DNA from: Escherichia coli
GTDB lineage: Bacteria > Pseudomonadota > Gammaproteobacteria > Enterobacterales > Enterobacteriaceae
Assembly (NCBI RefSeq): GCF_041248615.1
Contig: NZ_CP158426.1
Length of the DNA: 64,000 nucleotides
Direction: 5' to 3' (one strand)
Numbering within the stretch: the stretch's first letter is position 1; each line of letters opens with the position of its first letter. This document shows positions 1-46,275 of this stretch, piece after piece. The notes under the pieces were generated by a model. It did no database searches, was not told the origin of the DNA, and saw only the letters and a program-made list of their open reading frames with translations. The position numbers and the translations under genes are program-made.

Positions 1-780
1 ACCAGCACCTACATCCCGCACCCGCTGCTCAGCCAGCAGGCTTTTTCACGTTTTGTGCAGGACTATCTGGTATTTGGTAACGCCTACCTGGAGAAACGCA
101 CGAACCGCTTCGGTGAAATTATCGCCCTTGAACCGGCCCTGGCAAAATACACCCGACGCGGGTTAGACCTGGATAACTACTGGTTTGTGCAATACGGCAT
201 GACCACGCAGCCGTATCAGTTCACGAAAGGCAGTATCTTTCATCTGATGGAACCGGACATCAACCAGGAGATCTACGGCCTGCCCGGTTATCTTTCTGCC
301 ATTCCATCCGCCCTGCTCAACGAGTCCGCCACGCTGTTCCGTCGAAAGTATTACATTAACGGCAGTCATGCAGGCTTCATCATGTACATGACCGATGCCG
401 CGCAGAACCAGGAGGATGTGAACAACCTCCGCAATGCGATGAAAAGCGCCAAAGGCCCTGGCAACTTCCGCAACCTGTTTATGTACTCGCCTAACGGCAA
501 AAAGGACGGGCTTCAGATCATCCCGTTGTCAGAAGTCGCGGCGAAGGATGAGTTTCTGAATATCAAGAACGTGAGCCGGGATGACATGATGGCTGCGCAT
601 CGTGTGCCGCCACAAATGATGGGGATAATGCCAAATAATGTCGGGGGATTTGGGGATGTGGAGAAGGCTGCTAATGTGTTTGTTCGAAACGAGTTGCTAC
701 CTTTACAAAAAAGGATAGAGGAGGTCAATGATTGGCTAGGTGAAGATTTAATTACATTCAATTCATATTGCTTTGATTAA
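1..780 (+). CDS. Phage portal protein (P2 Q / 186 W-like), C-terminal part; 5' end lies left of the window
   Basis: Frame 1 is open from base 1 to the stop at 778-780 (track ORF 55-780 starts at an internal GTG). Gene points toward the cos-like sequence at 2045-2063, as the portal gene does in P2-family genomes. Product call is from position and recalled family resemblance. Confidence 0.5.
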   Translation, partial: TSTYIPHPLLSQQAFSRFVQDYLVFGNAYLEKRTNRFGEIIALEPALAKYTRRGLDLDNYWFVQYGMTTQPYQFTKGSIFHLMEPDINQEIYGLPGYLSAIPSALLNESATLFRRKYYINGSHAGFIMYMTDAAQNQEDVNNLRNAMKSAKGPGNFRNLFMYSPNGKKDGLQIIPLSEVAAKDEFLNIKNVSRDDMMAAHRVPPQMMGIMPNNVGGFGDVEKAANVFVRNELLPLQKRIEEVNDWLGEDLITFNSYCFD

Positions 781-790
781 TATTTAAGTT

Positions 791-823
791 AGCCCCAAGA
801 GAAATGAAAATTCTCAATGGGGC
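791..823. terminator. Inverted repeat between the convergent portal and RES genes (AGCCCCA...TGGGGCT with inner GAGAA/TTCTC)
   Basis: Nested palindrome read directly in the 52-bp gap between two convergent stops; weak T-run, so terminator function is tentative. Confidence 0.3.
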
Positions 824-832
824 TATTATCAC

Positions 833-1984
833 TTATTCAACTTCATCGTAATAAATCTCCCATTGATCATTCATACCAACAACCTGCTTTTCCTCGTAAA
901 TATACTGAACCTTGTCAATTTCTATTACTTTTGATGAACCATCTATAAATTCCATACATGAAGGATTAAAAACAACCAAGTTCTTACCTTTACCAACTGT
1001 ACTTGAAAATTGTATACCATCATACCCCTCTTTCCTTATACAATCAGATATTAGTTGGGACACACTATATCTTCCTTCTAAGGAAGGTGGAGTTGCAGTA
1101 TTAAAAATACCTGCCATCTTTGCATATGGTATCATGGATAATAAACTTTCATCACTCTCAATAAACTCTAAAAAATTAGGATAAGAAAAATCGAATACCT
1201 TTAATGCTTTTGCAACTCTAAATTTACCAATTGAAACAACATCTGTTGGATGAGGTCGAACTTCCGCAATTGCAGTATAACTATCTGTAGCACAATAAAG
1301 GTAAGAAACGCCTGCTCTATTAGCCCTGCCAGCAGTAGCCTTTAGTGGTGGCACGGCTCCTATTTCCTTATCTTTAAATGGAACAAATATTTTCTTTCCT
1401 TCACGGCTAAATCCCCTAAGTGCTGTTTTATAGCCAGCAGTCCCAACTCTGGCTCTATATACCACAGAACTTCCTTCTATTATCTTCGAAAAAATATCAC
1501 CATAACCTTTTATAATACTTCTTAGCTCACCTTCAAAATCATGGTAATTCTTTTCTGAAAGCTGTTTTGACAAAGAATCTAAAAATGGCTGATGTGCATT
1601 TCTGATAGACATATATGGCGTATTATATAGACCATCAGATCCATAGCCTGCATAAATATTTATTCCCTCACTATCAAATGCCATATCCCACAATTCGCTA
1701 TCGAGTTCCCCAAAAGATTCATCATGCTCCTGTATATCCTTGGTGAAAATAAAATCATCTTCCAATAGAAAACTCGGGTAATACTCCCCTCCAAAATGAG
1801 TATTGTAATCGACTTCATCATAATGATATCTCAGAATAGCTTTCAACAAATTACGTACTTCTGAAGAATCAGTATCTAAACAAACAGTATCTGCACAACA
1901 AAAAGCACAAATACCTCGTATATTTTGCGAAAAAATTAGTTTTTTTATATTTGATTCAACAATGTGACTTTCGCAGATATACAT
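833..1984 (-). CDS. RES-domain protein with Cys/His-rich N-terminal domain (putative NAD+-targeting toxin / abortive-infection effector); AT-rich cargo gene
   Basis: C-terminal half carries the RES signature: VYRAR, AGRANRAGVSYLYCATDSYTAIAEVRPH (R..N..G...LY.A.......E) and DGIQFSSTVGKGKNLVVFNP (conserved Ser, N.vvF). N-terminus has C-x20-C-x2-CC-x4-C. AGGAG sits 6 nt upstream of the second ATG (1984). Markedly AT-rich versus flanking phage genes. Confidence 0.6.
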   Translation of the reverse strand: MYICESHIVESNIKKLIFSQNIRGICAFCCADTVCLDTDSSEVRNLLKAILRYHYDEVDYNTHFGGEYYPSFLLEDDFIFTKDIQEHDESFGELDSELWDMAFDSEGINIYAGYGSDGLYNTPYMSIRNAHQPFLDSLSKQLSEKNYHDFEGELRSIIKGYGDIFSKIIEGSSVVYRARVGTAGYKTALRGFSREGKKIFVPFKDKEIGAVPPLKATAGRANRAGVSYLYCATDSYTAIAEVRPHPTDVVSIGKFRVAKALKVFDFSYPNFLEFIESDESLLSMIPYAKMAGIFNTATPPSLEGRYSVSQLISDCIRKEGYDGIQFSSTVGKGKNLVVFNPSCMEFIDGSSKVIEIDKVQYIYEEKQVVGMNDQWEIYYDEVE

Positions 1985-2044
1985 CATAATCTCCTTGAAT
2001 TTTACCTTACATGCTCATTATTGCCACTTTAGCTTGCGCGCGCA

Positions 2045-2063
2045 ATCGTATCCCCGCCACGCC
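2045..2063 (-). other. cos-like cohesive-end sequence of P2/186 type (bottom strand GGCGTGGCGGGGATACGAT)
   Basis: Bottom strand matches the recalled 19-nt 186 cohesive end GGCGTGGCGGGGAAAGCAT at 15/19 positions (first 13 contiguous). Lies in a GC-rich non-coding block with a perfect 12-bp palindrome TTGCGCGCGCAA at 2034-2045. Located between the early-region end and the portal gene, where cos is expected. Confidence 0.5.
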
Positions 2064-2349
2064 TGCCCGCTTTATGTAGCGGTTTTCATGCAGGTGCATG
2101 ATCTACGCAAAATCCCACCAGTTCTGGCGGGCCTTAGCAAAAACGATCCGCAAACGATCATGCGATCTCATGCGGCATAGTCATGCACTTACGGGGGAAC
2201 TGAAATCCAGTAACCGAATGATCGCTTGAAAAACGAAACATACGTACTTACAAAGCACAAAGCCTGCTTTGAGCGAAGCGGACATTAATAATGTTGCTGA
2301 CCATCCCTAGTACTTCTCATAATATATCCGTATGTTAATCAACAAAATA

Positions 2350-4242
2350 TTAATTTGTCCCATCACTAAAGAATTTGATTGCGTCAGTTAGTACATAGTC
2401 AATGAAAAATTTTACGTGAAAGACCTGAAAAACGCTATTTTCTGAGTTTTTAATGAAATCTACAGCTATATCTTTTAGGTTGATCAACCAGTTATATTCT
2501 TCAATCAGTCTAGTTCTGGCATCCGCATCAGAATAACGACTCCGTAAGCTAAATGCCAGTTTCCTCATGATAACTGGATCAAGTTTCCTATAGCTTTCAA
2601 TGAAAACATCAGCAGGAACTAAGTGTAAAAAAGGTACATCATGAAGATTTAACTGTCTATTATTAGAATGACTCAATTCAGATAACAACGATAATTTTCC
2701 CCTTTGTAACTCATCTCTGAACTGCAATGCAAATTCCGAAATTGAATCATCAAACCGTTTCTTCCTTTCTATTTTAATATGTTCAATAATGAGCTTAAAG
2801 TCATCACTATCCCTGTCAAGAAAACCTAAACCACGCCATGCCCTTAATTCGTTATAATGTGTTTGCGCATATTCCTTATGTACATCTTCAGCTCTAAGTC
2901 TATTATAATAATTATTTATATTCTGTTTTGTCTCATTTATGAGATCATGAACATCATCTGTTGTTAGACCTTCTTTCGCCATTTCCAGCAAAATACTCGC
3001 TGTCATCAGAAGTTCACCTAAGGAAGTGATCTTACCTGAAAACAGGTTATCCTTAGCAATAGCGTACTGCTCATAAAGCATAGTTTCATTTAGTTCTCTA
3101 TAGTTCCACAAATACTCCCATGCTTGGGAATCGCTGCTTCTAAAAAATCGCGTAATATCCAACTGAGCAAGAAGATCACCCGTTACCTTTCCATCACAGA
3201 TTAGTTCTCTCCAAGACGCACCATCCAGTAACTTCTCGGTTAATACAGGAGACGAATATTTCTCGACAATCATGTCATACTTACTTTTGACACGTTCTTT
3301 ACCCAAAAACATACCATAATTAACATTGCCGATTGAATTGAAATCCTCGTAACTAAGATTCCCTCCCCGGTACTCCATCGAAAAAATTAACAATTGATGA
3401 AAAAACACCCTTATAAATTCATCGTTACTTACATATTTATCTCCCAAAAGGGAAATAATTCGTTGTACATCGAGAAAGAACTGCCTCAAGTGTCTTAGAT
3501 TATTATAATTCGCTGACACATAGAGGTCCTCTATTGTCTGCATATCTTCTTTAAATATATTAGCAACATGCAAACTACTAATTACGTTCAAAAAAATCTT
3601 ACAAGCACTATGTAAATCTGACGTTACTTCAAATGTTTTACCTACTAGCTTTTCTTTTGTTCTCATGTATTCATTGCGAGATTTCTCATCATCATTATTT
3701 ATTCGCTTTTCTCTATTGATTATTTCATCTTCATTGGCAACCAAGATCGCTTTGTATCCGTTTACCTCTACAAAGTGATTTATATATCCAAATAAGATTG
3801 GTAAATCTACACCAGCTCTCTCGACATCATCAAAGACCAGCACAAAACCATCTGGTTTTCTAGTAAAGTCGCTAAGATTAATGGTGGGAACATTGCTATT
3901 GACATCTACGTCAGATTTATTATCGCCATTAAGATCGATCTTGAAAGTAGCCTTAAGCGTATTTTTTAGTACATTTGCACCAAAGATAAGGGCTTTGTTT
4001 GATAGGACAGGATGCAGTTGACGATAGAACTCATCTTCAATCTGCTCAATAGAGTTGACGCCATACAAGCTCACTTTTAGAAATTTGAACTCTGAATGTT
4101 TCTGCCTATATTCTTCAAGAACTCGTTCAATGAACCAAGTTTTACCTGATCCCCAAGCACCTTTAAGCATAATGGCGTATTGAGGTTCAGTTTTAAGGCT
4201 AAGGTAATATTCTAGATAGTCTTTGATGTACGTATTGTGCAT
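2350..4242 (-). CDS. KAP-family P-loop NTPase (candidate anti-phage defence cargo in the tin/old-equivalent hotspot)
   Basis: Walker A GAWGSGKT in the KAP-type GxWGxGK[ST] context and Walker B-like hhhhDDVER (VLVFDDVER); about 630 aa. AT-rich. Start taken at the MHNTY Met (4242); the track ORF extends to 4293 with no RBS. Confidence 0.65.
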   Translation of the reverse strand: MHNTYIKDYLEYYLSLKTEPQYAIMLKGAWGSGKTWFIERVLEEYRQKHSEFKFLKVSLYGVNSIEQIEDEFYRQLHPVLSNKALIFGANVLKNTLKATFKIDLNGDNKSDVDVNSNVPTINLSDFTRKPDGFVLVFDDVERAGVDLPILFGYINHFVEVNGYKAILVANEDEIINREKRINNDDEKSRNEYMRTKEKLVGKTFEVTSDLHSACKIFLNVISSLHVANIFKEDMQTIEDLYVSANYNNLRHLRQFFLDVQRIISLLGDKYVSNDEFIRVFFHQLLIFSMEYRGGNLSYEDFNSIGNVNYGMFLGKERVKSKYDMIVEKYSSPVLTEKLLDGASWRELICDGKVTGDLLAQLDITRFFRSSDSQAWEYLWNYRELNETMLYEQYAIAKDNLFSGKITSLGELLMTASILLEMAKEGLTTDDVHDLINETKQNINNYYNRLRAEDVHKEYAQTHYNELRAWRGLGFLDRDSDDFKLIIEHIKIERKKRFDDSISEFALQFRDELQRGKLSLLSELSHSNNRQLNLHDVPFLHLVPADVFIESYRKLDPVIMRKLAFSLRSRYSDADARTRLIEEYNWLINLKDIAVDFIKNSENSVFQVFHVKFFIDYVLTDAIKFFSDGTN

Positions 4243-4563
4243 TTTTAGTCCATTTTGATAAAATACATAAACATAGATGGTAAGTAGAGCCAAAGGCCAA
4301 CTATGGAAAACTCAATCGGTAGTGTACATTGTAAGGTTATTATTGGTAAATATTATAGGAATACCCATAATCTAACAAAATTCAGATTATCCGTTGCAAA
4401 TTAGTCTGCCATTCGCTAATTGACGAAAGATAGCACAAGAAACGTTCGCTTCTGGCACAAAGCGGACGATCACTTATAAAAATGACCGCCCACCTTACGC
4501 CTTATTTCACTCGTTGCCCAAACTAGCCCCCATTAGAATGAATCCTCCTAGGGGCAACGTTTC

Positions 4564-4797
4564 TTAATGCAGCCAGCTGTCATCTTCCCACACTTTCTGC
4601 ATAATTTTCATTACTTGTTTTCTTTCTTCGTCCAGTTGCAGTCCGGTTAGTTCCACACCGTTAGAGCTACCTTTGCGGATACGAATTACCGTTTTGGAAT
4701 ACAGGGGGCGCAGATTGCGGTAAAGCTCGGATTCAAGGGCGTCCAGGGTAGACTGGCTAATCTTCTGCTCTTTATCGATCATTATTTCAATGCGCAT
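4564..4797 (-). CDS. DinI-family protein (resembles E. coli DinI and the DinI-like domain of phage 186 Tum)
   Basis: MRIEIMIDKEQ...LDALESEL...IRIRKG...LTGLQLDEERKQVMKIMQKVWEDDSW aligns by eye with DinI (MRIEV.IAK...IDAL..EL......V.VR...LSV.G...E...I.EILQETWE.ADDW). GAGGTG RBS 7 nt upstream of ATG at 4797; track ORF 4564-4869 is an upstream extension. Confidence 0.6.
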   Translation of the reverse strand: MRIEIMIDKEQKISQSTLDALESELYRNLRPLYSKTVIRIRKGSSNGVELTGLQLDEERKQVMKIMQKVWEDDSWLH

Positions 4798-4807
4798 AAA
4801 AGTCACC

Positions 4808-4996
4808 TCAGCTGATGACATCCATTGAGCGGTTGTATTCGTGGCTTCTGATTTTTGCCATGAGTTCATCAGTCAATTCAGAAACCCACTGCAGAGCCAG
4901 CCCCTTCTCTTCATCACTACACTCACTAGCCGCTACAAGCTTAAGAAAAAAATCAATGCGCTGGAGCTTCAAAGACTCCAAAAAATAGTCCTGCAT
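4808..4996 (-). CDS. Small phage protein of unknown function, first gene of a two-gene unit with the DinI-like gene
   Basis: 62-codon ORF with AGGAGG RBS 5 nt upstream of ATG; its stop lies 10 nt before the DinI-like start. Confidence 0.45.
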   Translation of the reverse strand: MQDYFLESLKLQRIDFFLKLVAASECSDEEKGLALQWVSELTDELMAKIRSHEYNRSMDVIS

Positions 4997-5039
4997 CTTT
5001 CCTCCTATGACACCACACGCAATTCTGTATGTATAACCA

Positions 5040-5055
5040 CTGTTTATATTTACAG
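5040..5055 (-). promoter_or_regulatory. LexA-box-like motif (bottom strand CTGT-N8-ACAA) upstream of the small-protein/DinI-like pair
   Basis: Top strand TTGTTTATATTTACAG; on the coding strand this is CTGTAAATATAAACAA, one mismatch from the CTGT-N8-ACAG SOS box, about 45 bp upstream of the start codon. Confidence 0.3.
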
Positions 5056-5149
5056 TATATAATAATCCTACTGATGTAAAACGTTTTTTTACGCTTATCA
5101 GCCTGATATGCCTGGTATTATTAAGAGCACGAATTGTTAACCCGCGTAA

Positions 5150-7564
5150 TTAATACAGGTTCCGCCACTGATCATCTTCCTGCAAACGTTGGTTCCGATA
5201 GAAGATACGCAGGCCTGCTCCTGACGGAATACTGCCGCCACGAAGGAGTAAATAGACCTCTTTCTCGCTGCCATCAAATCCTCTGGACTTCAGTTCATAG
5301 ACAAGCTGCTGTCGCTGATGGTCTGTAATTCGCTGTTTGTAGTCTTTACGCCGTTTCGGTTTCACCAGGCGTAACCTTGCAGCCAGTTCCCGGCGCTCTT
5401 TTTTGCTCATACTGTGCAGGTATTCGTGCAACTCCTTGTCATCCATGCGGGTGATATCCGTTCTGGTATCTCCATCAGCTGATTTGTCTTTCCCTTGTTG
5501 GTACAAATTTTCAGCAAGGGGACAGTTATTGCCACGAGTCCAAGGGGCGCAAGCGCCCTGGTCGGCTGCCGCCTCCTGAACGTCAACGGCCTTACGAACC
5601 ATTTTCCACTTCACTGCATGAGTGCAGATCTTGCCCTCTGCAATGGGTGACCAGATGCCATAAATACGAATGCCGTGATCGCCATAGGCGGTCGGCTCTT
5701 CGTTAATTTCATAAGCAGTTCTGATGAGGTGATATTTGCGGGGAACCAGTACGCCGCCCTGCTTCATGATGTAAGTGGCAAAACAACCAGCATCAGCAGC
5801 AGCCAGGATTGCATCAAGGCGCGGGTTATCCAGTACCGGCGCACCTGCTTTTTTGTCCCCCTGTTGCCTTGCCGCCTGACCAGCCAGCAATCGCAGTTCA
5901 CGGTAAGCCTGACGCCCCGGAATGCCAAAGAAGCGGAATTGCTGAACACGATGCAGAGACGCCCAGGCATTAACGTATTCAGCGTTATCACGCAGGGATT
6001 TACCCGTTTCCTTGCTGATCTCGCCAGCCAGACCACGCCCGTCAATGTTCTTACTGATGTATTTCGCGATGTAGCTTGTTGGCGTACCTTTGCGCGGGTT
6101 TATCAGCTCAGACTTAAAGCGTGGTCCCGTGTTATTCCCCAGCTCCTCGCGGTCTTCACGAATGGCAAACTTACGCAATAAAGCAGTAATGGCGCGGCGA
6201 TCTTTTTTGCGCATAAAACACAACAGGTGCCAGTGAACTGTACCGTCATGATGCGGCTCAGCCACCCGCACGCCATACCACCGCAATCCGGCTTTGTGCA
6301 TCGCCTTACGAAATGCAGCAAACATGCCGACCAGATAATCACTGCTTTGTTTTACCGTCGCATTTGTCCAGGTTGGGTTGGGCCTGCCGTTATTTAGCGT
6401 GGAATGGAAACGTGACGGACAGGTGATGGTGTAGAAAACGGCGCAGTCACCGCGCATTTCCGCGATAAGCTCCAGACCTTTAACACAGGCCATCATCTCA
6501 TTGCGGCGATGCGCAGGGTTGCTGCTGCTGGCGTTTACCACATCCTCCATGTCCAGCGTGTCGCCGTCTTCGTTCACCAGTTCATGAGAACGGAAAAACT
6601 CCAGCGACTTACGGCGCTGCTCACGTTTATGCATCACGGCTTCATAGCTGACATAGGGGGATGCTTTTTTGCTAACCAGGCAGACAGCGCGCAACTGCTC
6701 TTCCCGCCATTCGCAACGCATCTTCCATAATTTCCGATACCACCAGTCGGCGCACAACATACGCGCCAGCGAACCCGGAATGAGTTCATAGGGCACGGGT
6801 TTACGGCGGTTTCTTTTCCGGCGGAGTTGCTCAAACGCAGGTGGGATGACATCCAGACGCAGGGTTTCCGCCGCCACCCTTTCCCATGTCTTGCGGATTT
6901 CTTCTGGCTTAACGTCATCGGTGGCATACAAATCGCCACAAGCTGCATCAAGGCACATGCTCATATGCGCAGCAACAAGGGTGGACAGGCGTTTCACCTG
7001 ATCCTGACTCATTTCAGGCAGAATCAGCAGGCCGTCCAGCCCTTCATGGCTTGCCATAAAGCGAAAAGAAGTGGATAGCTGACTGTCGCGTACATGCTCC
7101 AGCCGTTCCAGACATGGCTTAATCGTCTCACGCAAATAGCGGGAATAAGCCTTTGGCCTGCCAAGGCTACTGAAGTATTCAATACGTTGCATCAGCGGCT
7201 TGCTGATATGGGAGGGCTGGGCGCTGACGTCTGCCAGAATGACCATGTCCGGGTTAAAACGCTGCTGCTCATGCGCCAACTTTGCCCGGCTAATGAGCTT
7301 ATCCTGCTCCATTTCGCGCTGGACAGGATCACGGGATTCATTAAAGAAATAACGCTCCCAGACCTGATCACTCAGTGCCTCGCGGCGCAGTTGTTCCTGC
7401 TCGTTATCGGCAGCGTACAGAGTGATCAGGTTTGAAAGCGCAGAAACCGGCGCAACTTCCGCCGGGTCCAGATAAGGGTTAATAGCCTTTTTCGGGCTGT
7501 TCCATGAGAATGCTGCGGCGGCCTCGTTAAAGCCGCTGCAGTTGTTCATATCAGCATGGCTCAT
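5150..7564 (-). CDS. Phage replication initiation endonuclease (P2 gpA / 186 A family, rolling-circle)
   Basis: 804-aa ORF; size, early-operon position and C-terminal region resemble P2-family A proteins. Start overlaps the Dam stop by 4 nt. Confidence 0.8.
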
Positions 7565-8418
7565 GCACGCACTCCGTACACGGCAGAACTATCCACGCCA
7601 CGCGAAGGATCAAATCCCACCCAGCAGCGCGCCCCAGAAACAGCGATGATTTCTGTTGCAGATTTACTCTCACCAGTTGCTACGCCGATGCTGCGTTTTG
7701 CCTTGATGTAGTGGTGAGTAAAATTGCGATACAGCGAACGGATCAGGGATGTGTCACTGTTAGAAACAATGACCGGATGTCCTTCTGATGACCGATGTTC
7801 AAGAACGGATGCCAGGTGATACTGGTCATCTTCAGTGAAGCCGTCAGTGTGATAACCGGAAAACGTGCCGTCATACGGCGGATCGCAATACACCACATCC
7901 CCCGCCTTCAACATCGCCAGCGTTTCATCAAAGCTGGCGCAGATAAACGTTGCCCGCTGGGCTTTTTCTGCAAATGCGCGAATTTCTTTTTCAGGGAAAT
8001 ACGGATTTTTATAATTACCGTAGGGAATGTTGAAATGCCCGCTCTTGTTATAGCGACATAAACCACGGTAACCGTGACGATTGAGATACAGGAAATATAC
8101 CGCTTTCATGAAATCAGTAATTTCAGTTGAGTAATTAAACTCCTGCCTTATGTTGTAATAAGCCACCTCCCTGTTTGCTTCCTCAAATAAAGCTCTGGCG
8201 CGAGATATAAACAATTCACAATCAGCGGCAACCTTTTTATAGAGGTTGATTAAATCAGGATTAATATCCGCAACCAGATAGCTGGGGTAATCCGTCTCCA
8301 TCATCACTGCACAGGAACCCGCGAAAGGTTCAACCAGTCGCGGGCCAGCAGGAAGGTGTTTTTTCAGTTCTGGCATAATGGCGGTTTTATTTCCCGCCCA
8401 TTTCAGGATGGTGCTCAT
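7561..8418 (-). CDS. Dam-family N6-adenine DNA methyltransferase (phage-encoded)
   Basis: N-terminal [11 protein letters not shown]...EPFAGS (SAM-binding) and catalytic DPPY (VYCDPPY); start at the internal Met overlaps the upstream stop (ATGA). Confidence 0.85.
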
Positions 8419-8642
8419 ACAGCACCTCCGTTGTAATGTTTGCCTTTCAGCTCTGCGATTTCCTGACAGGTAATGCAAAGCTGCACTCCAAGAATGGCGC
8501 GGCGTCGTGCTGGCGGAATTGGCGCTTCACATTCAATACAAAGCACGCGGGACACGCCCGGCGTTTTGGCACGGGCAGCACGGATATGACGCTGGCGTTC
8601 TTCTTCAACGCGCTGCTGTACGAGATCCATTGCATCAGCCAT
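8415..8642 (-). CDS. TraR/DksA-family C4 zinc-finger protein (P2 orf82-like)
   Basis: 75 aa with CIECEAPIPP...CITCQ four-Cys motif; typical early-operon position. Confidence 0.7.
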   Translation of the reverse strand: MADAMDLVQQRVEEERQRHIRAARAKTPGVSRVLCIECEAPIPPARRRAILGVQLCITCQEIAELKGKHYNGGAV

Positions 8643-8881
8643 CAGTGGATCTCCTGCGCTTCGTTCTGGATTGCTTCAGCAGTCACACGCAGCAGTTCTG
8701 CCGCTTCGACGTGGTTTAGCTGGCGGGATGTGATATGACACGCAAGACTATCAAGGCGGGCAGCCATTGCTTCAGCCCTTGCCCGGCGTTCTTCCAGACG
8801 AGCCTCTGTCAGTAAAATATTAAGCCCTGCGTCATCCGGTCCGGTTTTGGTCGTGAGGGTTTCAATATTACGCATAATCAA
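8642..8881 (-). CDS. Hypothetical phage early protein
   Basis: 79-codon ORF translationally coupled to the downstream gene; no recognisable motif. Confidence 0.4.
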   Translation of the reverse strand: MIMRNIETLTTKTGPDDAGLNILLTEARLEERRARAEAMAARLDSLACHITSRQLNHVEAAELLRVTAEAIQNEAQEIH

Positions 8882-8942
8882 TTCTCCTGAATTTAGATAA
8901 AGGGATGCCTGGCGGGTTTACGCCATTAATTTCATTAGTTGG

Positions 8943-9284
8943 TTAATTCGGCATGGTTAGCCGTCTGGGAAATAAGCTCACCACTGCACGAAAATGATTC
9001 ATTGCTTTAATCAACTCCCGCTTTTCGTCAGTGGTCAGCTCATTAATGCTGATGCTATGACGTTCAGCTGGAATTTTTGCCATAAAGAATATGGCAGCCA
9101 GTGCCCGTTTATTTTGTTCGCTATTAATATCCCGTGGATCACGCATATCTTTAATAAACCGTTCAAGCTCTGACTCAATATTCAGACCAAAAACTTTCGC
9201 CCTTAACTCCGCAATGTGATTAAGTCCATTCAGGCGTTCACCGGGGCTTAATGGAACAGTCGCCGCAGCGCCTTCAATAGCCAT
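8943..9284 (-). CDS. Hypothetical phage early protein
   Basis: 113-codon ORF in the early operon; start uncertain. Confidence 0.4.
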   Translation of the reverse strand: MAIEGAAATVPLSPGERLNGLNHIAELRAKVFGLNIESELERFIKDMRDPRDINSEQNKRALAAIFFMAKIPAERHSISINELTTDEKRELIKAMNHFRAVVSLFPRRLTMPN

Positions 9285-9448
9285 TTGTTCCCCCGTTTTT
9301 TCGTAGATAGTTCTGCCAGCAATTCATCTTGTGAACGGCACGGATGCCAGCGTTTACCATCCTCACCCATGATCCAGCCGTGACCGTAGTGCATTGCCGG
9401 GCTTTGTTTAACAAGCAGCGATGCAAATGATGGTTCTTTCGTAAGCAT
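9248..9448 (-). CDS. Hypothetical small phage early protein
   Basis: 66-codon ORF starting 8 nt after the CII stop with GAGGTG upstream; overlaps the next ORF, so the call is tentative. Confidence 0.3.
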   Translation of the reverse strand: MLTKEPSFASLLVKQSPAMHYGHGWIMGEDGKRWHPCRSQDELLAELSTKKRGNKWLLKALRRLFH

Positions 9449-9455
9449 AAGCACC

Positions 9456-9965
9456 TCACAGCAAACCGAATGAAGCACCGAGGCCAGTCACGGTATCAAC
9501 TGCACTCGCCATCGCAGGGTTAGCCTGTAAACGGGCCTGCAATGAAACAGCAGCCAGCGCCATCAGTCGTGTTACAGAGTTAATGCTGCTGATAGCATCA
9601 CGACGACCTGCACTGGTTTTTACATCGCCAGATACCGCACCTGCAGCAACACGCCCGATCTCTGCGGTTGCACTCATGACGTAATGCGGCAGTTTCTCTT
9701 TTGCTACCTCATTAATCGGAACACATGGCAGGCAGTGAATCTGTGCCAGAAAACCATCTACCAGCGTTGAATCTTCAGTCAGATCGGTAAGCAACCAAAT
9801 TTCTGGTGCGGTTAATAAATGAGGTTGAGCTGGGTTCAGTTTGTTCCGCAGAATCTGCACATTCATACCTGCACGTTCTGCCAGTTGCACCAGATTGTGG
9901 CGCAGTGCGAATGCACGACAGGCTTCATCAAAATGTGGATGTTTGGAAACTTGGTAATCAAACAT
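9456..9965 (-). CDS. CII-like lysogeny-establishment transcriptional activator (phage 186 CII family)
   Basis: N-terminus [24 protein letters not shown]...[25 protein letters not shown] closely matches the recalled 186 CII sequence; first gene-pair position of the lytic operon. Confidence 0.8.
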
Positions 9966-9997
9966 GGTCAATGCCTCTGATGTATTTCAGAATCGAA

Positions 9998-10219
9998 CTA
10001 ATTAAGGTTTAGATTGCATTCTGAAAGCGCATCAACGGTCATGGCTGCTATGTTGATCATCACTTTTTCGCGTTTTTTATCTTTGCGCAAACGGTGACGG
10101 ATAAGGCGTCCATCAGCCAACATGTCATTGATGGTATCGATGGACAGCCCTGTCAGCTCGCTATAGCGTTCAATAGTCACATGAGGCGTGGTAAGAGTGA
10201 TTGAAATGTTAGGTCTCAT
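9998..10219 (-). CDS. Apl/Cox-like excisionase and lytic-operon repressor
   Basis: 73-aa basic protein, first gene of the lytic operon and divergent from CI, as apl/cox in 186/P2. Confidence 0.55.
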
Positions 10220-10344
10220 GATGCAACATTCCTCGTTTAATGATGATTAATCAGGACGAATACGGATCGTTTGTATTTTGTGAACACCATAAACATACGA
10301 TCGCACAATGAAATCGTCAAGACAAAAGTTCACTTGGAGTGACC
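10220..10344. promoter_or_regulatory. Immunity switch region between apl and cI (expected pR/pL promoters and CI operators)
   Basis: 125-bp divergent intergenic region containing repeated ACGATCG-type elements; assignment by analogy to 186. Confidence 0.45.
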
Positions 10345-10914
10345 ATGAATTTGGAGAAAGGCGGACGAGGCGCTATAGAGCGCATGGTAGAAGCTTATGG
10401 ATTCAAGACTCGACAGGCGTTGTGCGATCATTTAGGAATCTCTAAAAGTACACTCGCCACACGCTACATGCGTGACTCATTCCCCGCAGAATGGGTAATC
10501 CAGTGCGCCCTTGAAACGGGCACCTCGCTTAATTGGCTCACAACCGGGCATGGTTCAAAGCAAACTTCAGGTAATACAAATACTATGGAAGTTGCTAAAT
10601 ATGTATTATCTGATGGGGCCTTGTGTGAAGACGGTTTTTATATTTTCGATAGGGGATTTCTACCGTCGGCATTCAAGAGTCTTTTTGTAATCACAGATAA
10701 TAATTCTGAATGTATTTGTGATAAGGAATTTGATGATATACGTGATGGTAAATGGGTAATAAGTATTGATGGTGAAATAACGATCCGTGACATTACTCGT
10801 TTACCCGGCGGAAGAATCTTCGTCGAGGGTGGAAACAGAGCGTTCGAATGCAAGATAGAAGACATTGAAATAATTGGTAAAATTATAAGTTTAACAGTCA
10901 AGTATGTTAAATAG
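10345..10914 (+). CDS. CI immunity repressor (phage 186 CI family)
   Basis: ERMVEAYGF...CALETGTSLNWLTTGHG...GKWVISIDGEITIRDITRLPGGRIFVEGGNRAFECKIEDIEIIGKII parallels the recalled 186 CI sequence; GGAG RBS before ATG at 10345 (track ORF starts at GTG 10339). Confidence 0.85.
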   Translation: MNLEKGGRGAIERMVEAYGFKTRQALCDHLGISKSTLATRYMRDSFPAEWVIQCALETGTSLNWLTTGHGSKQTSGNTNTMEVAKYVLSDGALCEDGFYIFDRGFLPSAFKSLFVITDNNSECICDKEFDDIRDGKWVISIDGEITIRDITRLPGGRIFVEGGNRAFECKIEDIEIIGKIISLTVKYVK

Positions 10915-10929
10915 TACCGGGAGGAAACT

Positions 10930-11121
10930 ATGCTTGGTAAGGTATTTTTTGTGGTTTTGTCATGTTCTTTGTTATTAAACCCACTAACTACCTATGCTAG
11001 AAATTATCCCTGTTCAGGGAAAAAGGGAGGTGTTTCTCACTGTACCTCAGATGGCAAATTCGTTTGCAATGATGGAACTATTAGTAAATCCAAAAAAATC
11101 TGTACTAAAAACTCACGATAA
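10930..11121 (+). CDS. Small secreted Cys-containing peptide (possible moron) between cI and int
   Basis: 63 codons; strong RBS GGGAGG 6 nt before ATG; N-terminal signal-peptide-like segment ([23 protein letters not shown]) followed by about 40 residues with four Cys and many Lys. Confidence 0.5.
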
Positions 11122-11309
11122 CTTTTGCTTTTATATCTGCGCCTAAAATAAAAATGAGCCGCAGGTTAACCGCAAAAGTTACATGCTCACATAGCAAAAA
11201 GAATAGCCAACTTAATTATGGCTTCAGTGAGATGTATGGTCGTAGGATTTCATACATTGACACTGGTTATACATACAGTGAAAATGCTCTCTACTGGAGG
11301 GCATTTTTT

Positions 11310-12362
11310 ATGGCAGTACGAAAACTCACCACAGGGAAATGGCTTTGCGAATGTTACCCCGCCGGACGTAATGGGCGTCGTGTGCGTAAACAATTCGCCA
11401 CCAAAGGCGAAGCACTGGCCTTCGAGCGATACACCATGGGGGAAATAGAAGCAAAGCCCTGGCTGGGCGAATCAGTGGATCGTCGGACACTGAAAGATAT
11501 GGTTGAGCTATGGTTCAAATTACATGGCAAATCTCTTACTGCCGGACAGCATGTCTACAACAAGCTGCTGTTGATGGTTGACGCCTTGGGAAATCCCCTT
11601 GCAACTGATCTCACCTCAAAAATGTTTGCTCACTATCGCGATAAACGCCTTACTGGTGAAATCTACTTCAGTGAAAAATGGAAGAAAGGAGCAAGCCCAG
11701 TTACTGTTAACCTGGAGCAAAGCCATCTAAGCAGCGTTTTCAGAGAACTTTCCCGCCTGGGTGAATGGACACTTCCAAACCCATTAGAGAAGATGCGCAA
11801 ATTCACTATCGCAGAAAAGGAAATGGCATGGCTTACACATGAGCAGATTATCGAATTACTGTCTGACTGCAAACGTCAGAACCCAATTCTGGCACTGGTG
11901 GTAAAAATATGTCTAAGTACAGGTGCACGTTGGCGAGAAGCAATCAATCTTGCTCGCTCACAGGTCACCAAGTACCGAATCACCTTTGTGAGAACGAAGG
12001 GTAAGAAAAACAGAAGCATCCCTATCAGTAAAGAGCTTTATGAAGAGATAATGGCGCTCGATGGGTTCAATTTCTTCACAGACTGCTATTTTCAATTTTT
12101 ATCCGTGATGGAAAAAACGTCTATCGTTCTCCCTCGCGGTCAACTGACACACGTTCTGCGCCATACGTTTGCGGCGCACTTCATGATGTCGGGTGGAAAC
12201 ATCTTGGCCTTACAAAAAATTCTCGGACATCACGATATAAAAATGACTATGCGTTATGCGCATCTGGCACCGGATCATTTGGAAACGGCGCTCCGTTTCA
12301 ATCCACTGGCAACGTTACCAAATGGCGACAAAGTGGCGGCAGCGGTTGGCATTACCCCGTAA
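11310..12362 (+). CDS. int: Phage tyrosine integrase
   Basis: Catalytic residues in TGARWREA, HVLRHTFAAH and MRYAHL; GGAGG RBS before ATG at 11310 (track ORF starts upstream at 11154); last prophage gene, about 100 bp from host rcdA. Confidence 0.9.
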   Translation: MAVRKLTTGKWLCECYPAGRNGRRVRKQFATKGEALAFERYTMGEIEAKPWLGESVDRRTLKDMVELWFKLHGKSLTAGQHVYNKLLLMVDALGNPLATDLTSKMFAHYRDKRLTGEIYFSEKWKKGASPVTVNLEQSHLSSVFRELSRLGEWTLPNPLEKMRKFTIAEKEMAWLTHEQIIELLSDCKRQNPILALVVKICLSTGARWREAINLARSQVTKYRITFVRTKGKKNRSIPISKELYEEIMALDGFNFFTDCYFQFLSVMEKTSIVLPRGQLTHVLRHTFAAHFMMSGGNILALQKILGHHDIKMTMRYAHLAPDHLETALRFNPLATLPNGDKVAAAVGITP

Positions 12363-12421
12363 TAACCACCACTGACCACCACATTAAGTTATTGTTTTTC
12401 ATCTAACTTATTGTTTTTATT

Positions 12422-12447
12422 AACCCATTTAGATAAGTGGGTTTTTT
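12422..12447 (+). terminator. Rho-independent terminator after int / att-junction hairpin (AACCCA-N10-TGGGTT + TTTTTT)
   Basis: Stem-loop followed by a six-T run; its 3' part TGGGTTTTTTGTT equals the recalled 3' end of the E. coli RybB sRNA terminator. Confidence 0.5.
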
Positions 12448-12466
12448 GTTATCTAAAATTTATCTA

Positions 12467-13003
12467 CTACCCTGCAACCCTCTCAACCATCCTCAAAATC
12501 TCCTCGCGCGATAGCGGCTTACGGTCGGTGACAAAATGCAGCGTCATCCCCTCAATAAACGCATCAAGCGCGCGGGCGGTTCCGGGTTCAAACCATTGTT
12601 CGAGCGTTTGCTGACTGCGCTGCATCCAGTTTTGCATTACCGTTTTTAATAGCGGTTTTCGGCTAGCCAGCGCGTAGAGCTGATACATCAGCTCCATATT
12701 ATCCGGCGTTGCAACCTGTGAGCTGTAGATCATATCGGTGATAGCCTGGCATGCGCCTTGAGCATCACTAACATCGCTAAAAAATGCCTGATATTGCCGG
12801 GACATGATCTCAGTAAAACTGCTGAACGCCTCCAGCAACAACTCATCAATTCCTGAAAAATAGTAGGTCATCGATCCCAACGGTACCCCGGCAAGGGTAG
12901 CAATTTTGCGGTGCGTAACAGCATGTATTCCATAAAGTTTCACCGCCTCCAGCGTGGCCTGGATAATTTTTTCTCGCCGTTGCGGATCGTTAGCGCGACG
13001 CAT
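12467..13003 (-). CDS. rcdA: TetR-family transcriptional regulator RcdA (YbjK)
   Basis: Trimmed to internal Met gives 178 aa, matching K-12; N-terminal TetR HTH; synteny. Confidence 0.9.
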
Positions 13004-23941: not shown

Positions 23942-24328
23942 ATGGGTGTGTATAAGGCAAGACGATTCAGCCAAAGCACGAAAAAACTTGGTATTCACGA
24001 TAAAGTTCTCATGGCTGCCGCTGAAGAAGTGATGCAGGGCATATGGGAGGCTGATTTAGGTAGCGGTGTCATCAAAAAACGTTTACCCCTCCAACAAGGA
24101 AAGAGTGGTGGAGCCAGAACAATTATCTTTTTTAAATCAGCAAATCATGTGTTTTTTTATGATGGTTGGTCCAAGAGTGGTCTAAGCAGTAAAGGAACCA
24201 AAGAAATCGAAGATGATGAACTGGCGGCCTACAAAAAAATGGCAAATGCATTTCTGGCCTTTAGCAATAAGCAAATAGAGGATTTGATCGAAACTGGCTT
24301 TTTGATTGAGGTGAAAAATGAGCGATAA
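23942..24328 (+). CDS. HigB2-like (Gp49/RelE-superfamily) toxin of a type II toxin-antitoxin pair
   Basis: GSGVIKKRLPLQQGKSGGARTIIFF resembles the recalled HigB-2 core (GTGGLRKIR...GKRGGSRIIYYF); toxin-first order with an 11-nt overlap into an HTH gene; absent from this position in K-12 as recalled. Confidence 0.55.
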   Translation: MGVYKARRFSQSTKKLGIHDKVLMAAAEEVMQGIWEADLGSGVIKKRLPLQQGKSGGARTIIFFKSANHVFFYDGWSKSGLSSKGTKEIEDDELAAYKKMANAFLAFSNKQIEDLIETGFLIEVKNER

Positions 24329-24647
24329 ATTACAAATGATGCTGGAAGATGCAAAGGAACTGAATGCACTGGGCCTGATGTCTGATAGTGAAGTTGATGC
24401 CATTGCCGTCATGGTCAAAGCTCGTGAAGTCAGCGCCCGTATAGCCAAAGTCAAATCAATGACGGGTGAAGAGATCAAAGCCATCCGCACCCGATACGGC
24501 ATGTCACAATCCGTGCTGGCACATACAATGGGAATGTCAAAAGAAAGTGTCTCGAAATGGGAACGTAATGAAATAAAACCGAGCGGCCCGGCATTACGTA
24601 TTTTGAATACATTGGCAATAAAAGGGCCGGAAGTTTTTGCAAAGTAA
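24318..24647 (+). CDS. HigA-like XRE-family HTH antitoxin
   Basis: C-terminal helix-turn-helix (GMSQSVLAHTMGMSKESVSKWE); overlaps the toxin gene. Confidence 0.6.
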   Translation: MSDKLQMMLEDAKELNALGLMSDSEVDAIAVMVKAREVSARIAKVKSMTGEEIKAIRTRYGMSQSVLAHTMGMSKESVSKWERNEIKPSGPALRILNTLAIKGPEVFAK

Positions 24648-44665: not shown

Positions 44666-44959
44666 TTTGTGATCTGCCTCTAATTCGGAAATGACAGAAT
44701 TTTCATGAGCAAAAAAGCCCATTCTGTCTGGCATTAAATCCATTTCAGTAATGTATATCAGTCACTCATGGAAAAACGTGCACAAAACCCGCTTTCTTTC
44801 GCTTTTAGGGTCTCTTACTGTGAATTGGTAGAACAACTTCCATACAAAAATAATGGGAAAACGAACAATAAAGACTTTATTTATCAAAAAGTTAAAAGTG
44901 GTGTGACAACTCCATTCTGACGTTGCCGCACAAACCCTATACCATTCTGTGGAGTGCAT

Positions 44960-46261: not shown

Positions 46262-46275
46262 GAGTGGATGTAAAC

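Follow-up and report, generated by a model that had tools for sequence, protein, structure and literature searches.

Positions 1–12463 of the 64,000-nucleotide stretch of DNA analysed here (the window) are best read as the integrase-proximal third of a temperate P2-family phage (Peduoviridae) 34.3 kb in length, with regulation of the 186/Fels-2/PSP3 type, integrated at the ybjL-rcdA attB of Escherichia coli NRZ14408. Together with the roles proposed below for its switch, its Dam methylase and its cargo genes, we hold this reading to be about 85% probable. The prophage is an ordinary, common 186/Fels-2-type E. coli element, of which nothing is even mildly notable except two single-gene cargo genes, with a predicted anti-phage role, that flank the packaging site. 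The features are collected in Table 1.

The window sequence is identical to NZ_LT599825.1, the chromosome of E. coli NRZ14408, in which the prophage sits between ybjL and rcdA and its right 12.4 kb corresponds to positions 1–12463. Many E. coli genomes match the reconstructed empty site perfectly (100% identity over 600 nt). Because the gene set is complete, both att copies are present, cos is conserved and a tum-like operon is under SOS control, the prophage looks intact and, by its predicted gene content, is probably inducible. A preliminary description of this DNA had considered it intact over its int-proximal 12 kb and probably active. Every ORF of 1–12463 is indeed open, but the true end lies at 12463 rather than 12450, and the span 1–5150, with the 3′ end of the portal gene, a RES-domain gene, cos, a KAP NTPase gene and a LexA-controlled split tum operon, was absent from that account. 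Full annotation with flanking sequence, which it had called for, revealed a complete P2-type set of late genes beyond the window, ogr included. A tail-fibre region that PGAP flags as two partial pseudogenes is a single, uninterrupted and intact ORF of 501 aa.

Those pseudogene calls could be taken to indicate a defective, domesticated remnant that produces no phage and is retained solely for its defence cargo. Roughly one in five E. coli genomes has the ybjL-rcdA site interrupted, presumably by insertion, and this too could reflect old, fixed elements. Such a remnant is very improbable, given that the P2 late genes, ogr, cos, both att copies, int, the Cox-like gene and the SOS operon are all intact. 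Moreover, a second copy of the prophage that is 99.6% identical is found in an unrelated strain, and relatives that are ~94% identical over ~60% of the query are deposited as phage records.

Table 1. Features of positions 1–12463, in order of position.
Feature	Position	Strand	Basis
Portal gene, 3′ part (P2 Q/186 W homologue)	55..780	+	Pfam Phage_portal E 2.7e-17; 62% identity to 186 portal; PGAP: portal; start outside window
Stand-alone RES-domain protein (384 aa), aRES type	833..1987	-	Pfam RES E 2.8e-18; slot between cos and Q
cos, 19-nt cohesive-end sequence GGCGTGGCGGGGATACGAT	2048..2066	-	Aligns with 186 and P2 cos junctions
KAP-family P-loop NTPase (630 aa), candidate single-gene defence protein	2350..4242	-	Pfam KAP_NTPase E 5e-20; PADLOC PDC-S49 E 3e-156; slot between tum and cos
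DinI-like gene, downstream half of split tum	4564..4797	-	Pfam DinI E 1e-21; 40% identity to 186 Tum residues 71-145
orf62, upstream half of split tum, putative antirepressor	4808..4996	-	Matches phrog_698
LexA box CTGTAAATATAAACAG	5040..5055	-	Overlaps -10 (TATACT) of orf62-dinI operon promoter; counterpart of 186 p95
gpA, rolling-circle replication initiator (804 aa)	5150..7564	-	Pfam Phage_GPA E 1e-127; 35% identity to 186 A, 31% to P2 A
Dam-type (D12 class) N6-adenine methyltransferase (285 aa), DPPY	7561..8418	-	Pfam MethyltransfD12 E 4e-77; predicted GATC specificity
TraR/DksA C4 zinc-finger protein	8415..8642	-	Pfam zf-dskA_traR E 1e-8; 67% identity to 186 homologue, 46% to P2 Orf82
DUF2732 gene	8642-8881	-	Pfam; 46% identity to 186 protein
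DUF5347 gene	8943-9284	-	Pfam
Fil gene	9248-9448	-	Pfam; 81% identity to 186 Fil
cII (169 aa)	9456..9965	-	Pfam Phage_CP76 E 3e-42; 69% identity to 186 CII
CII-binding half-sites at cII 5′ end	ATGTTTG 9939-9945, CAAACAT 9959-9965	-	Identical to annotated 186 CII site
Apl/Cox-like excisionase-repressor (73 aa)	9998..10219	-	PHROG 575 'Cox-like excisionase and repressor' E 6e-31
Switch region	10220..10344	.	125 bp between apl-like and cI; 129 bp in 186
Candidate operator: 18-nt imperfect inverted repeat	10265-10282 / 10285-10302	.	Repeat search
pR-like promoter TTGACG-17-TATGTT	10320 to 10292	-	Consensus promoter scan of switch region
cI immunity repressor (189 aa), 186/HP1 type	10345..10914	+	Pfam Phage_CI_repr E 3e-33, Phage_CI_C E 1e-25; 33% identity to 186 CI
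YdcA-family small protein (63 aa)	10930..11121	+	PGAP name; matches phrog_6000; variable cI-int slot
Tyrosine integrase int (350 aa)	11310..12362	+	Pfam Int_N and Phage_integrase; 54% identity to 186 Int, 36% to P2 Int
Right att copy GTGGGTTTTTTGTTATCTAAAATTTAT	12437..12463	.	Prophage/host junction immediately before rcdA; imperfect 27-bp repeat of left end (L003 5770)

To judge from its genes, the lysogeny switch is of the 186 type throughout. cI and int lie on the plus strand and diverge from a minus-strand series of apl-like, cII, fil, DUF5347, DUF2732, TraR, Dam and gpA genes. The preliminary description had recognised this switch and arrangement, with CI and CII both said to match their 186 counterparts closely. 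This holds for CII, but CI is merely 33% identical to 186 CI and, among deposited phages, reaches 57% identity with its top match; the immunity type therefore differs from that of 186. In the place of the Apl that it named lies an Apl/Cox-like protein, recognised by a PHROG profile only; Pfam gave no match, and BLAST related it to neither 186 Apl nor P2 Cox. In the switch region, the consensus scan found a pR-like promoter alone and picked up no pL-like one; promoter-like matches are no more frequent there than in shuffled sequence.

By homology with 186, CI would repress the pR-like promoter and thereby keep the leftward early operon (apl-cII-fil-DUF5347-DUF2732-traR-dam-A) silent. On infection, CII would bind its two half-sites and drive establishment transcription that runs antisense across apl and on into cI and int. 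The slot between cI and int is occupied by other genes in relatives; here it holds the YdcA-family protein, whose hydrophobic N-terminus is read as a signal peptide. Exit from lysogeny may be governed by the tum operon, which is split into two genes in an arrangement known from Fels-2 and PSP3 (PMC3121763). Its LexA box is the single match to CTGT-N8-ACAG in the entire 64 kb, and the similarity of orf62 to the N-terminus of 186 Tum (Smith-Waterman score 57, z 8.9) was reached by none of 2000 shuffles. Following DNA damage, LexA would leave the box at the split tum promoter and the orf62 product would inactivate CI, as homology with 186 predicts; Apl would then tilt the switch to lytic growth and promote excision at the att sites.

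The replication genes invite another reading, namely a mosaic of a 186 switch and P2 replication functions, as the preliminary description had it, in which the extra Dam gives the lysogen anti-restriction or epigenetic effects through an added m6A motif. The genes that it names are all present, gpA does belong to the P2 GPA family, and PADLOC assigns the methylase to its orphan MTase class (E 1e-111). Phage-borne Dam enzymes are, in addition, often discussed as anti-restriction functions. Nevertheless, we give this mosaic very little credence. 186 itself has gpA, DUF2732 and a TraR-like finger in the same order, gpA is about equidistant from 186 A and P2 A, and no homologue of the P2-specific B was found in the prophage, so there is no 186/P2 combination to explain. 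The TraR zinc finger is a standard component of 186 and P2 alike. As in 186, gpA would start rolling-circle replication.

The Dam half of the proposal fares no better. The phage enzyme aligns with E. coli Dam (EcoDam, PDB 2G1P) over its full length (E 3e-73; ~50% identity, counted from the alignment), and every EcoDam GATC-contact residue that was checked is kept (K9, Y119, L122, R124, P134 and Y138), as is the DPPY motif. From this conservation GATC is predicted as its target, and the phage Dam most likely shares the specificity of the host enzyme, an outcome that the preliminary description had itself counted against its idea. Since the contacts are kept, the enzyme should bring no further motif to a dam+ host, and an added m6A motif or an altered lysogen epigenome is unlikely. 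The gene also lies inside the CI-repressed early lytic operon, downstream of the pR-like promoter, and a consensus scan of the coding strand turned up no separate promoter for it. The coupled stop/start overlaps reported earlier are seen in the sequence as ATGA at Dam/A and at TraR/Dam, and as TGATG at DUF2732/TraR; dam, with ATGA at both ends, is predicted to be translationally coupled to A. Nor is the gene uncommon, as 1238 of 5426 complete E. coli genomes (23%) carry it; in the records listed, its annotated neighbours are TraR and a replication endonuclease. Of the preliminary claim, then, the zinc finger and the DPPY methyltransferase stand and the epigenetic effect is unlikely. By homology, Dam would be translated in tandem with A and methylate GATC on fast-replicating phage DNA, and a dam+ host would gain no motif.

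The two cargo genes lie on either side of cos. The packaging region around it (about 2034–2189) is conserved, a 155-bp block being kept in related phages, and in all the E. coli prophages with RES that were checked, the cos motif is located 61–76 bp upstream of that gene. The RES protein combines an N-terminal HEPN/RES-NTD1-like domain, which bears a Cys/His cluster, with a C-terminal RES NAD+ phosphorylase domain. C5, C27, C30, R178, R180, Y231, E242 and S329 are invariant among 49 homologues. In an AF2 model (pLDDT 94), the C-terminal half matches MbcT, ParT and RES toxins. PF18870 was not detected directly by hmmscan in the N-terminal 210 residues, even at E 10, but hhalign relates this domain to PF18870-positive N-domains (97%, E 1e-10). 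No antitoxin gene was seen beside RES, and the protein is predicted to phosphorolyse NAD+ when triggered by phage and thereby to arrest growth. The KAP protein has invariant Walker A (G28-K34) and Walker B (D138/D139/E141) motifs and, in the model, an all-helical C-terminal half; no recognisable effector domain was found in the model, which gave weak fold matches that all fell short of E 0.001.

Since each gene occurs without the other, RES and KAP are considered independent single-gene cargo, with a defence role predicted by homology, in the known gpA-gpQ hotspot of P2-like phages. That they instead form one two-gene system, with the KAP ATPase as a sensor controlling a RES NADase effector in the manner of RdrA with RdrB in RADAR, is the least probable of the alternatives, and remotely so. 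The two genes are neighbours on the same strand, and RdrA is among the weak fold matches of KAP. Of the five complete E. coli genomes that carry RES, four have a KAP-family gene, from either of two unrelated KAP families, across cos, which would be compatible with a functional link, and KAP plus RES arrangements appear in Table S5A of Rousset et al. 2022 (PMC9122126), where DinI, KAP_NTPase and RES, the latter under the same accession, were already recorded. The four co-occurrences, however, reduce to two prophage lineages, and cos together with a 360-bp spacer separates the genes, which places them at opposite ends of the virion DNA. KAP is found in 45 genomes and RES in only 5 (of 5426 E. 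coli genomes), at least 13 KAP-carrying prophages list no RES gene, RES homologues adjoin other genes or int, and the KAP homologues of Serratia, Pseudomonas and Paraburkholderia are solitary genes among unrelated neighbours. The PADLOC model of PDC-S49 consists of one gene, and the aRES proteins, which are stand-alone antiphage RES-domain proteins tested experimentally, work alone (Osterman et al., bioRxiv 2026, doi 10.64898/2026.01.28.702374).

As independent cargo, both genes can be compared with known systems. Like the aRES proteins, the prophage RES is a stand-alone protein whose RES domain keeps invariant catalytic residues, whose N-domain is homologous to HEPN/RES-NTD1 and whose gene travels among mobile defence cargo, a likeness of domain make-up to the three tested proteins. 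It differs in lacking the direct PF18870 hmmscan match, in occupying the specific cos-Q slot of P2-like prophages and in being rare. Comparable, too, are the P2 old/tin locus and the gpA-gpQ defence hotspot of P2-like phages, where the variable stretch near cos accommodates short anti-phage systems (Rousset et al. 2022, PMC9122126); neither RES nor KAP is among the systems named as validated in the results of that work. Here, the hotspot is divided by cos into two slots (tum-cos and cos-Q), each with one single-gene module. The phage Dam, similar as it is to EcoDam, differs from it in being phage-borne, embedded and coupled in an early lytic operon, and in having a shorter loop after DPPY.

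For the phage as a whole, 186 provides the layout: int-cI divergent from apl-cII-fil-...-DUF2732-TraR-...-A, with a LexA-controlled tum operon and cos coming next, in that order. CII (69%, with identical half-sites), Fil (81%), TraR (67%) and Int (54%) are shared with it, and the division of tum into antirepressor and DinI halves is shared with Fels-2 and PSP3. In contrast to 186, the prophage has a divergent CI and Apl-like protein (above), a different operator palindrome, Dam in place of orf82-84, DUF5347 in place of dhr, cargo on both sides of cos where 186 carries orf97, and its attB at ybjL-rcdA instead of a tRNA-Ile gene. Klebsiella phage 4LV2017 (Elveevirus) and Escherichia phage vB_EcoM-813R9 share the backbone (Q, tum, A, Dam, TraR, cII and int) at ~94% DNA identity, but just 61–62% of the 12.4 kb is common to them and their CI is at most 57% identical. 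In the cargo slots that here contain RES and KAP, these phages have a retron St85 system or a Hypoth_Ymh (Abi-like) gene, and in the cI-int slot a large ATPase or another ORF. 813R9 is nonetheless integrated beside rcdA, with the same cos motif.

Only the cargo genes of this prophage deserve experimental follow-up, and both of them, together with the cos site that lies between them, were missed in the preliminary description, a reading of positions 1-12450 from the sequence alone. The window is identical in sequence to positions 3491669-3555668 of the chromosome of E. coli NRZ14408 (NZ_LT599825.1), where the prophage is seen to be a P2-family element of 34.3 kb lying between ybjL and rcdA (ybjK), with window positions 1-12463 forming its right-hand part. 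Both prophage ends carry an imperfect 27-bp repeat, GTGGGTTTTTTGTTRYCTRAAATTTAT. An in silico empty site of 600 nt, made of the left host flank followed by the right copy of the repeat with its adjoining sequence, aligned without a break and at 100% identity to many E. coli genomes, and the prophage boundaries are therefore exact. Of 5426 E. coli genomes, 4295 have the empty ybjL-rcdA site in contiguous form; P2-like phages commonly use this site as attB. A tRNA scan found none, so the att site does not lie within a tRNA gene, and the sole match in an Rfam scan of positions 1-13000 was a chance miRNA match.

From 12467 on, the window consists of regular core chromosome of E. coli, from rcdA, ybjJ and ybjI to rlmF. 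Two further loci can be recorded in it. A RelE/ParE-family toxin gene overlapping a downstream HTH gene constitutes a type II toxin-antitoxin pair (23942-24647, plus strand) in a patch of lower G+C between rimO and dgcI. Between ybiU and ybiT (43562-48639) lie genes for a LacI-family regulator, an MFS transporter and a member of glycoside hydrolase family 31, which, unlike their named neighbors, have no PGAP gene names and may be an accessory sugar-utilization cluster. Outside the window, nfsA of this clinical isolate is annotated as frameshifted (1864-2575 of L003, the stretch of NZ_LT599825.1 with the rest of the prophage). Loss of nfsA is linked to nitrofurantoin resistance.

The preliminary description had taken the int-proximal part of the prophage to be intact, and the annotation of the whole element with its flanks bears this out. 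In the record, the full set of P2 late genes is annotated, and so are ogr, the genes for lysis, and a DNA invertase gene with alternative tail-fiber ends; both att copies, cos, int, a Cox-like gene and an SOS operon are also present. PGAP presents the tail-fiber gene as disrupted, in the form of two partial pseudogenes, one of which is mislabeled 'integrase'. This was rejected because the gene is a single uninterrupted ORF, and the annotation is corrected here to an intact gene. From its sequence, the prophage is probably inducible. A copy of the 12.4-kb prophage portion that is 99.6% identical occurs in another strain, and deposited phage records, including the close relatives 4LV2017 (from Klebsiella) and vB_EcoM-813R9 (from Escherichia; 813R9 hereafter), matched with about 94% identity over about 60% of the query. 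Two observations concern the late region outside the window. The serine DNA invertase gene adjoins a gp53-like fragment and two oppositely oriented tail-fiber assembly genes (L003 13150-15163), an arrangement suggestive of a host-range switch that works by inversion, like those of Mu Gin and P1 Cin. In addition, the baseplate V gene and the S gene are separated by a hypothetical gene of 288 aa in the opposite orientation (L003 19188-20054, plus strand); P2 carries its non-essential orf30 at this place, which is possibly another cargo slot.

Features of the prophage, with positions in the window unless another record is named
Feature	Position	Strand	Basis or remark
RES gene, 384 aa	833-1987		Pfam PF08808, E 2.8e-18
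cos, GGCGTGGCGGGGATACGAT	2066-2048	minus	Alignment with 186 and P2 junctions
KAP NTPase gene, 630 aa	2350-4242		PADLOC PDC-S49, E 3e-156
DinI-like, downstream ORF	4564-4797		40% identity to C-terminal half of 186 Tum
orf62, upstream ORF	4808-4996		Aligns with 186 Tum N-terminus
LexA box	5040-5055		CTGT-N8-ACAG
gpA	5150-7564	minus	ORF listing, Pfam/PHROG
D12/Dam methylase, 285 aa	7561-8418	minus	Pfam E 3.7e-77
TraR/DksA finger	8415-8642	minus	ORF listing, Pfam/PHROG
DUF2732	8642-8881	minus	ORF listing, Pfam/PHROG
DUF5347	8943-9284	minus	ORF listing, Pfam/PHROG
fil	9248-9448	minus	ORF listing, Pfam/PHROG
cII	9456-9965	minus	ORF listing, Pfam/PHROG
CII half-sites	9939-9945 / 9959-9965		ATGTTTG / CAAACAT
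apl-like	9998-10219	minus	ORF listing, Pfam/PHROG
Inverted repeat (candidate CI operator)	10265-10282 / 10285-10302		18 nt, imperfect
cI	10345-10914	plus	ORF listing, Pfam/PHROG
63-aa YdcA-like ORF	10930-11121	plus	Between cI and int
int	11310-12362	plus	ORF listing, Pfam/PHROG
Right att repeat copy	12437-12463		Imperfect 27-bp repeat
Tail-fiber ORF, 501 aa, intact	L003 15163-16668 = NZ_LT599825.1 3479162-3480667		Outside window; PGAP flags are an annotation artefact

The early region had been described as a 186-like lysogeny switch combined with P2-like replication functions. Its layout was confirmed by ORF listing and Pfam/PHROG searches, with an apl-cII-...-A series on the minus strand divergent from cI-int on the plus strand, a TraR finger and a Dam methylase with a DPPY motif. 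The coupled stop/start overlaps were also found at the sequence level, as ATGA at the Dam/A and TraR/Dam junctions and TGATG at DUF2732/TraR. The combination itself had to be given up. In the annotated genome of 186, DUF2732, a DksA-like finger and A follow in the same order as here, which leaves no 186/P2 mosaic; Dam occupies the place of 186 orf82-84. The rolling-circle initiator gpA (Phage_GPA, Pfam E 1.4e-127) has 35% identity to 186 A and 31% to P2 A. No ORF of the window matches the P2 B region by tblastn, the helicase-loader gpB being specific to P2 and missing from 186, and the 'GpB' label of a DUF5347 homolog in the 813R9 record is unsupported. Fil shares 81% identity with 186 and none with P2, and for the TraR finger the values are 67% and 46%. 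The whole early region is of the 186 type.

CI and CII had both been called close to their 186 counterparts, which is true of CII only. This protein of the CP76 family (Pfam E 3.4e-42) has 69% identity to 186 CII and none to P2, and its half-sites at the start of cII, 20 bp apart, are identical to the annotated 186 site. CI contains the Phage_CI_repr HTH domain (E 2.8e-33) and the Phage_CI_C domain (E 1.2e-25) in Pfam, and reaches 33% identity to 186 CI over 175 aa, none to P2 C, and 57% to its best match among deposited phage records. Int is 54% identical to that of 186 and 36% to that of P2. The Apl-like protein, encoded by the first gene of the lytic operon, belongs to PHROG 575 (E 6e-31), and BLAST matched it to neither 186 Apl nor P2 Cox. 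The cI-apl interval measures 125 bp, against 129 bp in 186. A consensus scan placed in it a pR-like promoter directed at apl (TTGACG-17-TATGTT) and passed no pL-like promoter there, promoter-like matches overall not being above shuffled expectation; a face-to-face arrangement of pR and pL is thus putative here. The imperfect inverted repeat overlapping the -10 element of the pR-like promoter is a plausible candidate for the CI operator. The palindromes that relatives have here are different ones, in keeping with different immunity types. The palindrome has a GATC at each outer end, one of which abuts the -10 element, and methylation of the pair could influence the activity of the promoter or the binding of the repressor. 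As a general feature linking Dam to the switch, a methylation-sensitive operator was rejected, as GATC is absent from the switch interval of the Dam-carrying 4LV2017 and occurs there only once in 813R9. The YdcA-family ORF between cI and int has a hydrophobic N-terminus, and this interval is a third variable slot, holding in relatives a 558-aa 'chromosome segregation ATPase', a ParA-family gene, a 349-aa ORF or a 444-aa ORF.

Control of the switch by the SOS response is suggested by a perfect LexA box, the sole match to its motif in the 64-kb window. The box covers the -10 element (TATACT) of a promoter that precedes two small ORFs. The alignment of orf62 with the N-terminus of 186 Tum has a Smith-Waterman score of 57 (z 8.9) that none of 2000 shuffles reached. 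Together, orf62 and the DinI-like ORF represent a split tum, as in Fels-2 and PSP3, and form a putative antirepressor operon under LexA; in PSP3, the upstream gene of the split tum is reported to encode the antirepressor (PMC3121763). Pfam finds no significant S24 peptidase domain in CI, which is consistent with induction driven by an antirepressor rather than by RecA-dependent cleavage.

The Dam methylase had been proposed as a source of an added m6A motif in the lysogen. Instead, it aligns over its full length with E. coli Dam (PDB 2G1P and related entries; E ~3e-73, about 50% identity by hand count from the alignment), with the DPPY catalytic motif visible. In the structure of EcoDam with DNA, GATC is contacted by K9, Y119, L122, R124, P134 and Y138, and all six residues are identical in the prophage protein, which is accordingly EcoDam-like with a predicted specificity for GATC. 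An additional motif in the lysogen methylome is thus unlikely, and nothing new would probably be seen there. The observed/expected ratio of GATC is similarly below expectation in prophage (0.73) and host (0.79). The gene sits in the early operon, which by homology to 186 would be repressed by CI, and is translationally coupled on both sides; its most likely role would be to maintain GATC methylation on rapidly replicating phage DNA, either in the lytic cycle or in a host with little Dam or with DpnII-type restriction. Dam and TraR are stock components of the lineage. About a quarter of complete E. coli genomes (1238 of 5426) contain the dam gene, mostly with 95-99% identity, and it is also found in SopE-phi and Klebsiella P2-like phages; in the records listed, its annotated neighbors are TraR and the replication endonuclease.

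Unlike the rest of the prophage portion, where G+C content is about 44-54%, the interval 1000-4000 has 35-38%. The exact P2 cos sequence was not found here with up to three mismatches allowed, and cos was placed by visual inspection and by aligning the region to the junctions of 186 and P2, between the RES-domain gene and the KAP NTPase gene. In virion DNA, the two genes are consequently at opposite ends.

The RES gene (WP_077758113) occurs in five of 5426 complete E. coli genomes. Twelve residues are invariant in 49 homologs (C5, C27, C30, R178, R180, R221, N223, Y231, E242, R244, Y307 and S329). In the AlphaFold model (pLDDT 94), the C-terminal half matches the RES toxins MbcT, ParT, P. putida RES and VPA0770, and the solved structures among the fold matches listed are all RES or ART-type domains of about 145-185 residues that cover this half. 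By sequence, the protein matched no solved structure even at E 1, and no family in PADLOC or PHROGs. In P2-like prophages, its homologs adjoin Q; cos lies 61-76 bp upstream of them, and the genes on the far side of cos differ. A Yersinia homolog adjoins int. A RES-Xre toxin-antitoxin module can be dismissed, since no Xre/DUF2384-type antitoxin ORF is adjacent here or at homologous loci. The neighbors differ in every context examined, with cos immediately upstream and no operonic partner. Stand-alone antiphage RES proteins (aRES) were defined in a January 2026 preprint as proteins of 300-600 aa that combine RES with PF18870 (HEPN/RES-NTD1), and three enterobacterial members (E. coli UC5, K. pneumoniae S_34AVR and E. 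chengduensis GN04826) were shown there to be protective in E. coli, where NAD+ is turned into nicotinamide and ADPR-1''-phosphate and growth is arrested (Osterman et al., bioRxiv 2026, doi 10.64898/2026.01.28.702374). The prophage protein shares with them its length, a RES domain with intact R/E/S-type catalytic residues and the lack of an antitoxin. Distant full-length homologs have PF18870 at residues ~20-160, and a direct hmmscan of the N-terminal 210 residues against Pfam returned nothing. Membership of this domain in PF18870 was judged by proxy, from the alignment of a RES-family N-domain profile with the N-domains of five PF18870-positive homologs, at a probability of 97% (hhalign, E 1.1e-10, 136 columns), the aRES definition asking for a profile-profile probability above 80%. 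By these family-defining features, the RES gene is likely a member of aRES.

The KAP gene is found in 45 of 5426 E. coli genomes. The match to PDC-S49, a candidate system of PADLOC, covers residues 19-640 of the 647-aa ORF, and the KAP_NTPase domain of Pfam (E 5e-20) has invariant Walker A (GxxGxGK) and Walker B (DDxE) motifs. Homologs in Serratia, Pseudomonas and Paraburkholderia are solitary, with unrelated neighbors. In the model (pLDDT 84), residues 80-122 form a disordered insert and the C-terminal half is entirely helical. A fold search in the PDB gave weak matches to ORC/Cdc6, RdrA, RFC and NLR proteins, none at E 0.001 or better; no effector domain was recognizable in the model or these matches, and the C-terminal 384 residues alone had no significant match in Pfam. 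No literature on PDC-S49 was found; other KAP NTPases have been shown to defend Enterococcus (PMC12632615). The protein is a PDC-S49 family member and a predicted single-gene candidate for defense. In E. coli K56-43-un (record L015), a second KAP-family NTPase of 706 aa (L015 6676-8796) lies in the tum-cos slot beside a RES gene. It has no BLAST similarity to the KAP protein of the window; the RES gene next to it shares 99.7% DNA identity with that of the window and has the same accession, WP_077758113.

With two candidate defense genes on either side of cos, a relation between them has to be considered. It seems rather doubtful that the cos-flanking slots, as the ends of the virion chromosome, are a dedicated two-slot defense platform, with KAP as a single-protein system of undescribed mechanism and maybe in synergy with the aRES NADase. 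The reading of KAP and RES as a two-gene system is largely rejected on their distribution: a KAP gene lies across cos in four of the five RES-carrying E. coli genomes, but these genes come from two unrelated KAP families and the four co-occurrences reduce to two prophage lineages, which makes the association weak, and at least 13 KAP-carrying prophages among the matches have no RES gene annotated.

As two separate cargo genes, the rare, predicted aRES-type NADase and the KAP NTPase candidate provide a natural case in which both flank cos, and a convenient construct for testing them singly or together. They reside in a precisely delimited and apparently inducible prophage of a clinical reference-center isolate, with attL/attR, cos, the LexA box and the CII sites mapped. 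The location corresponds to the cos-proximal gpA-gpQ hotspot of P2-like phages, and Table S5A of the same study already has the entry 'DinI + KAP_NTPase + RES' with the same RES accession (Rousset et al. 2022, PMC9122126). In the hotspot, 4LV2017 has instead the RT-plus-effector pair of retron St85 (1313-3296 of its record, L001), and in 813R9, where cos lies between the cargo gene and dinI, the same cos-Q slot holds a Hypoth_Ymh (Abi-like) gene (1338-2594 of its record, L002). With other cargo in this slot or in the wider hotspot of these relatives, the cos-Q interval is a recurrent single-gene cargo slot of the lineage. The element itself is routine and of a well-understood type, a further member of the 186/Fels-2-type Peduoviridae whose immunity allele is divergent and whose two predicted defense cargo genes form a particular combination.
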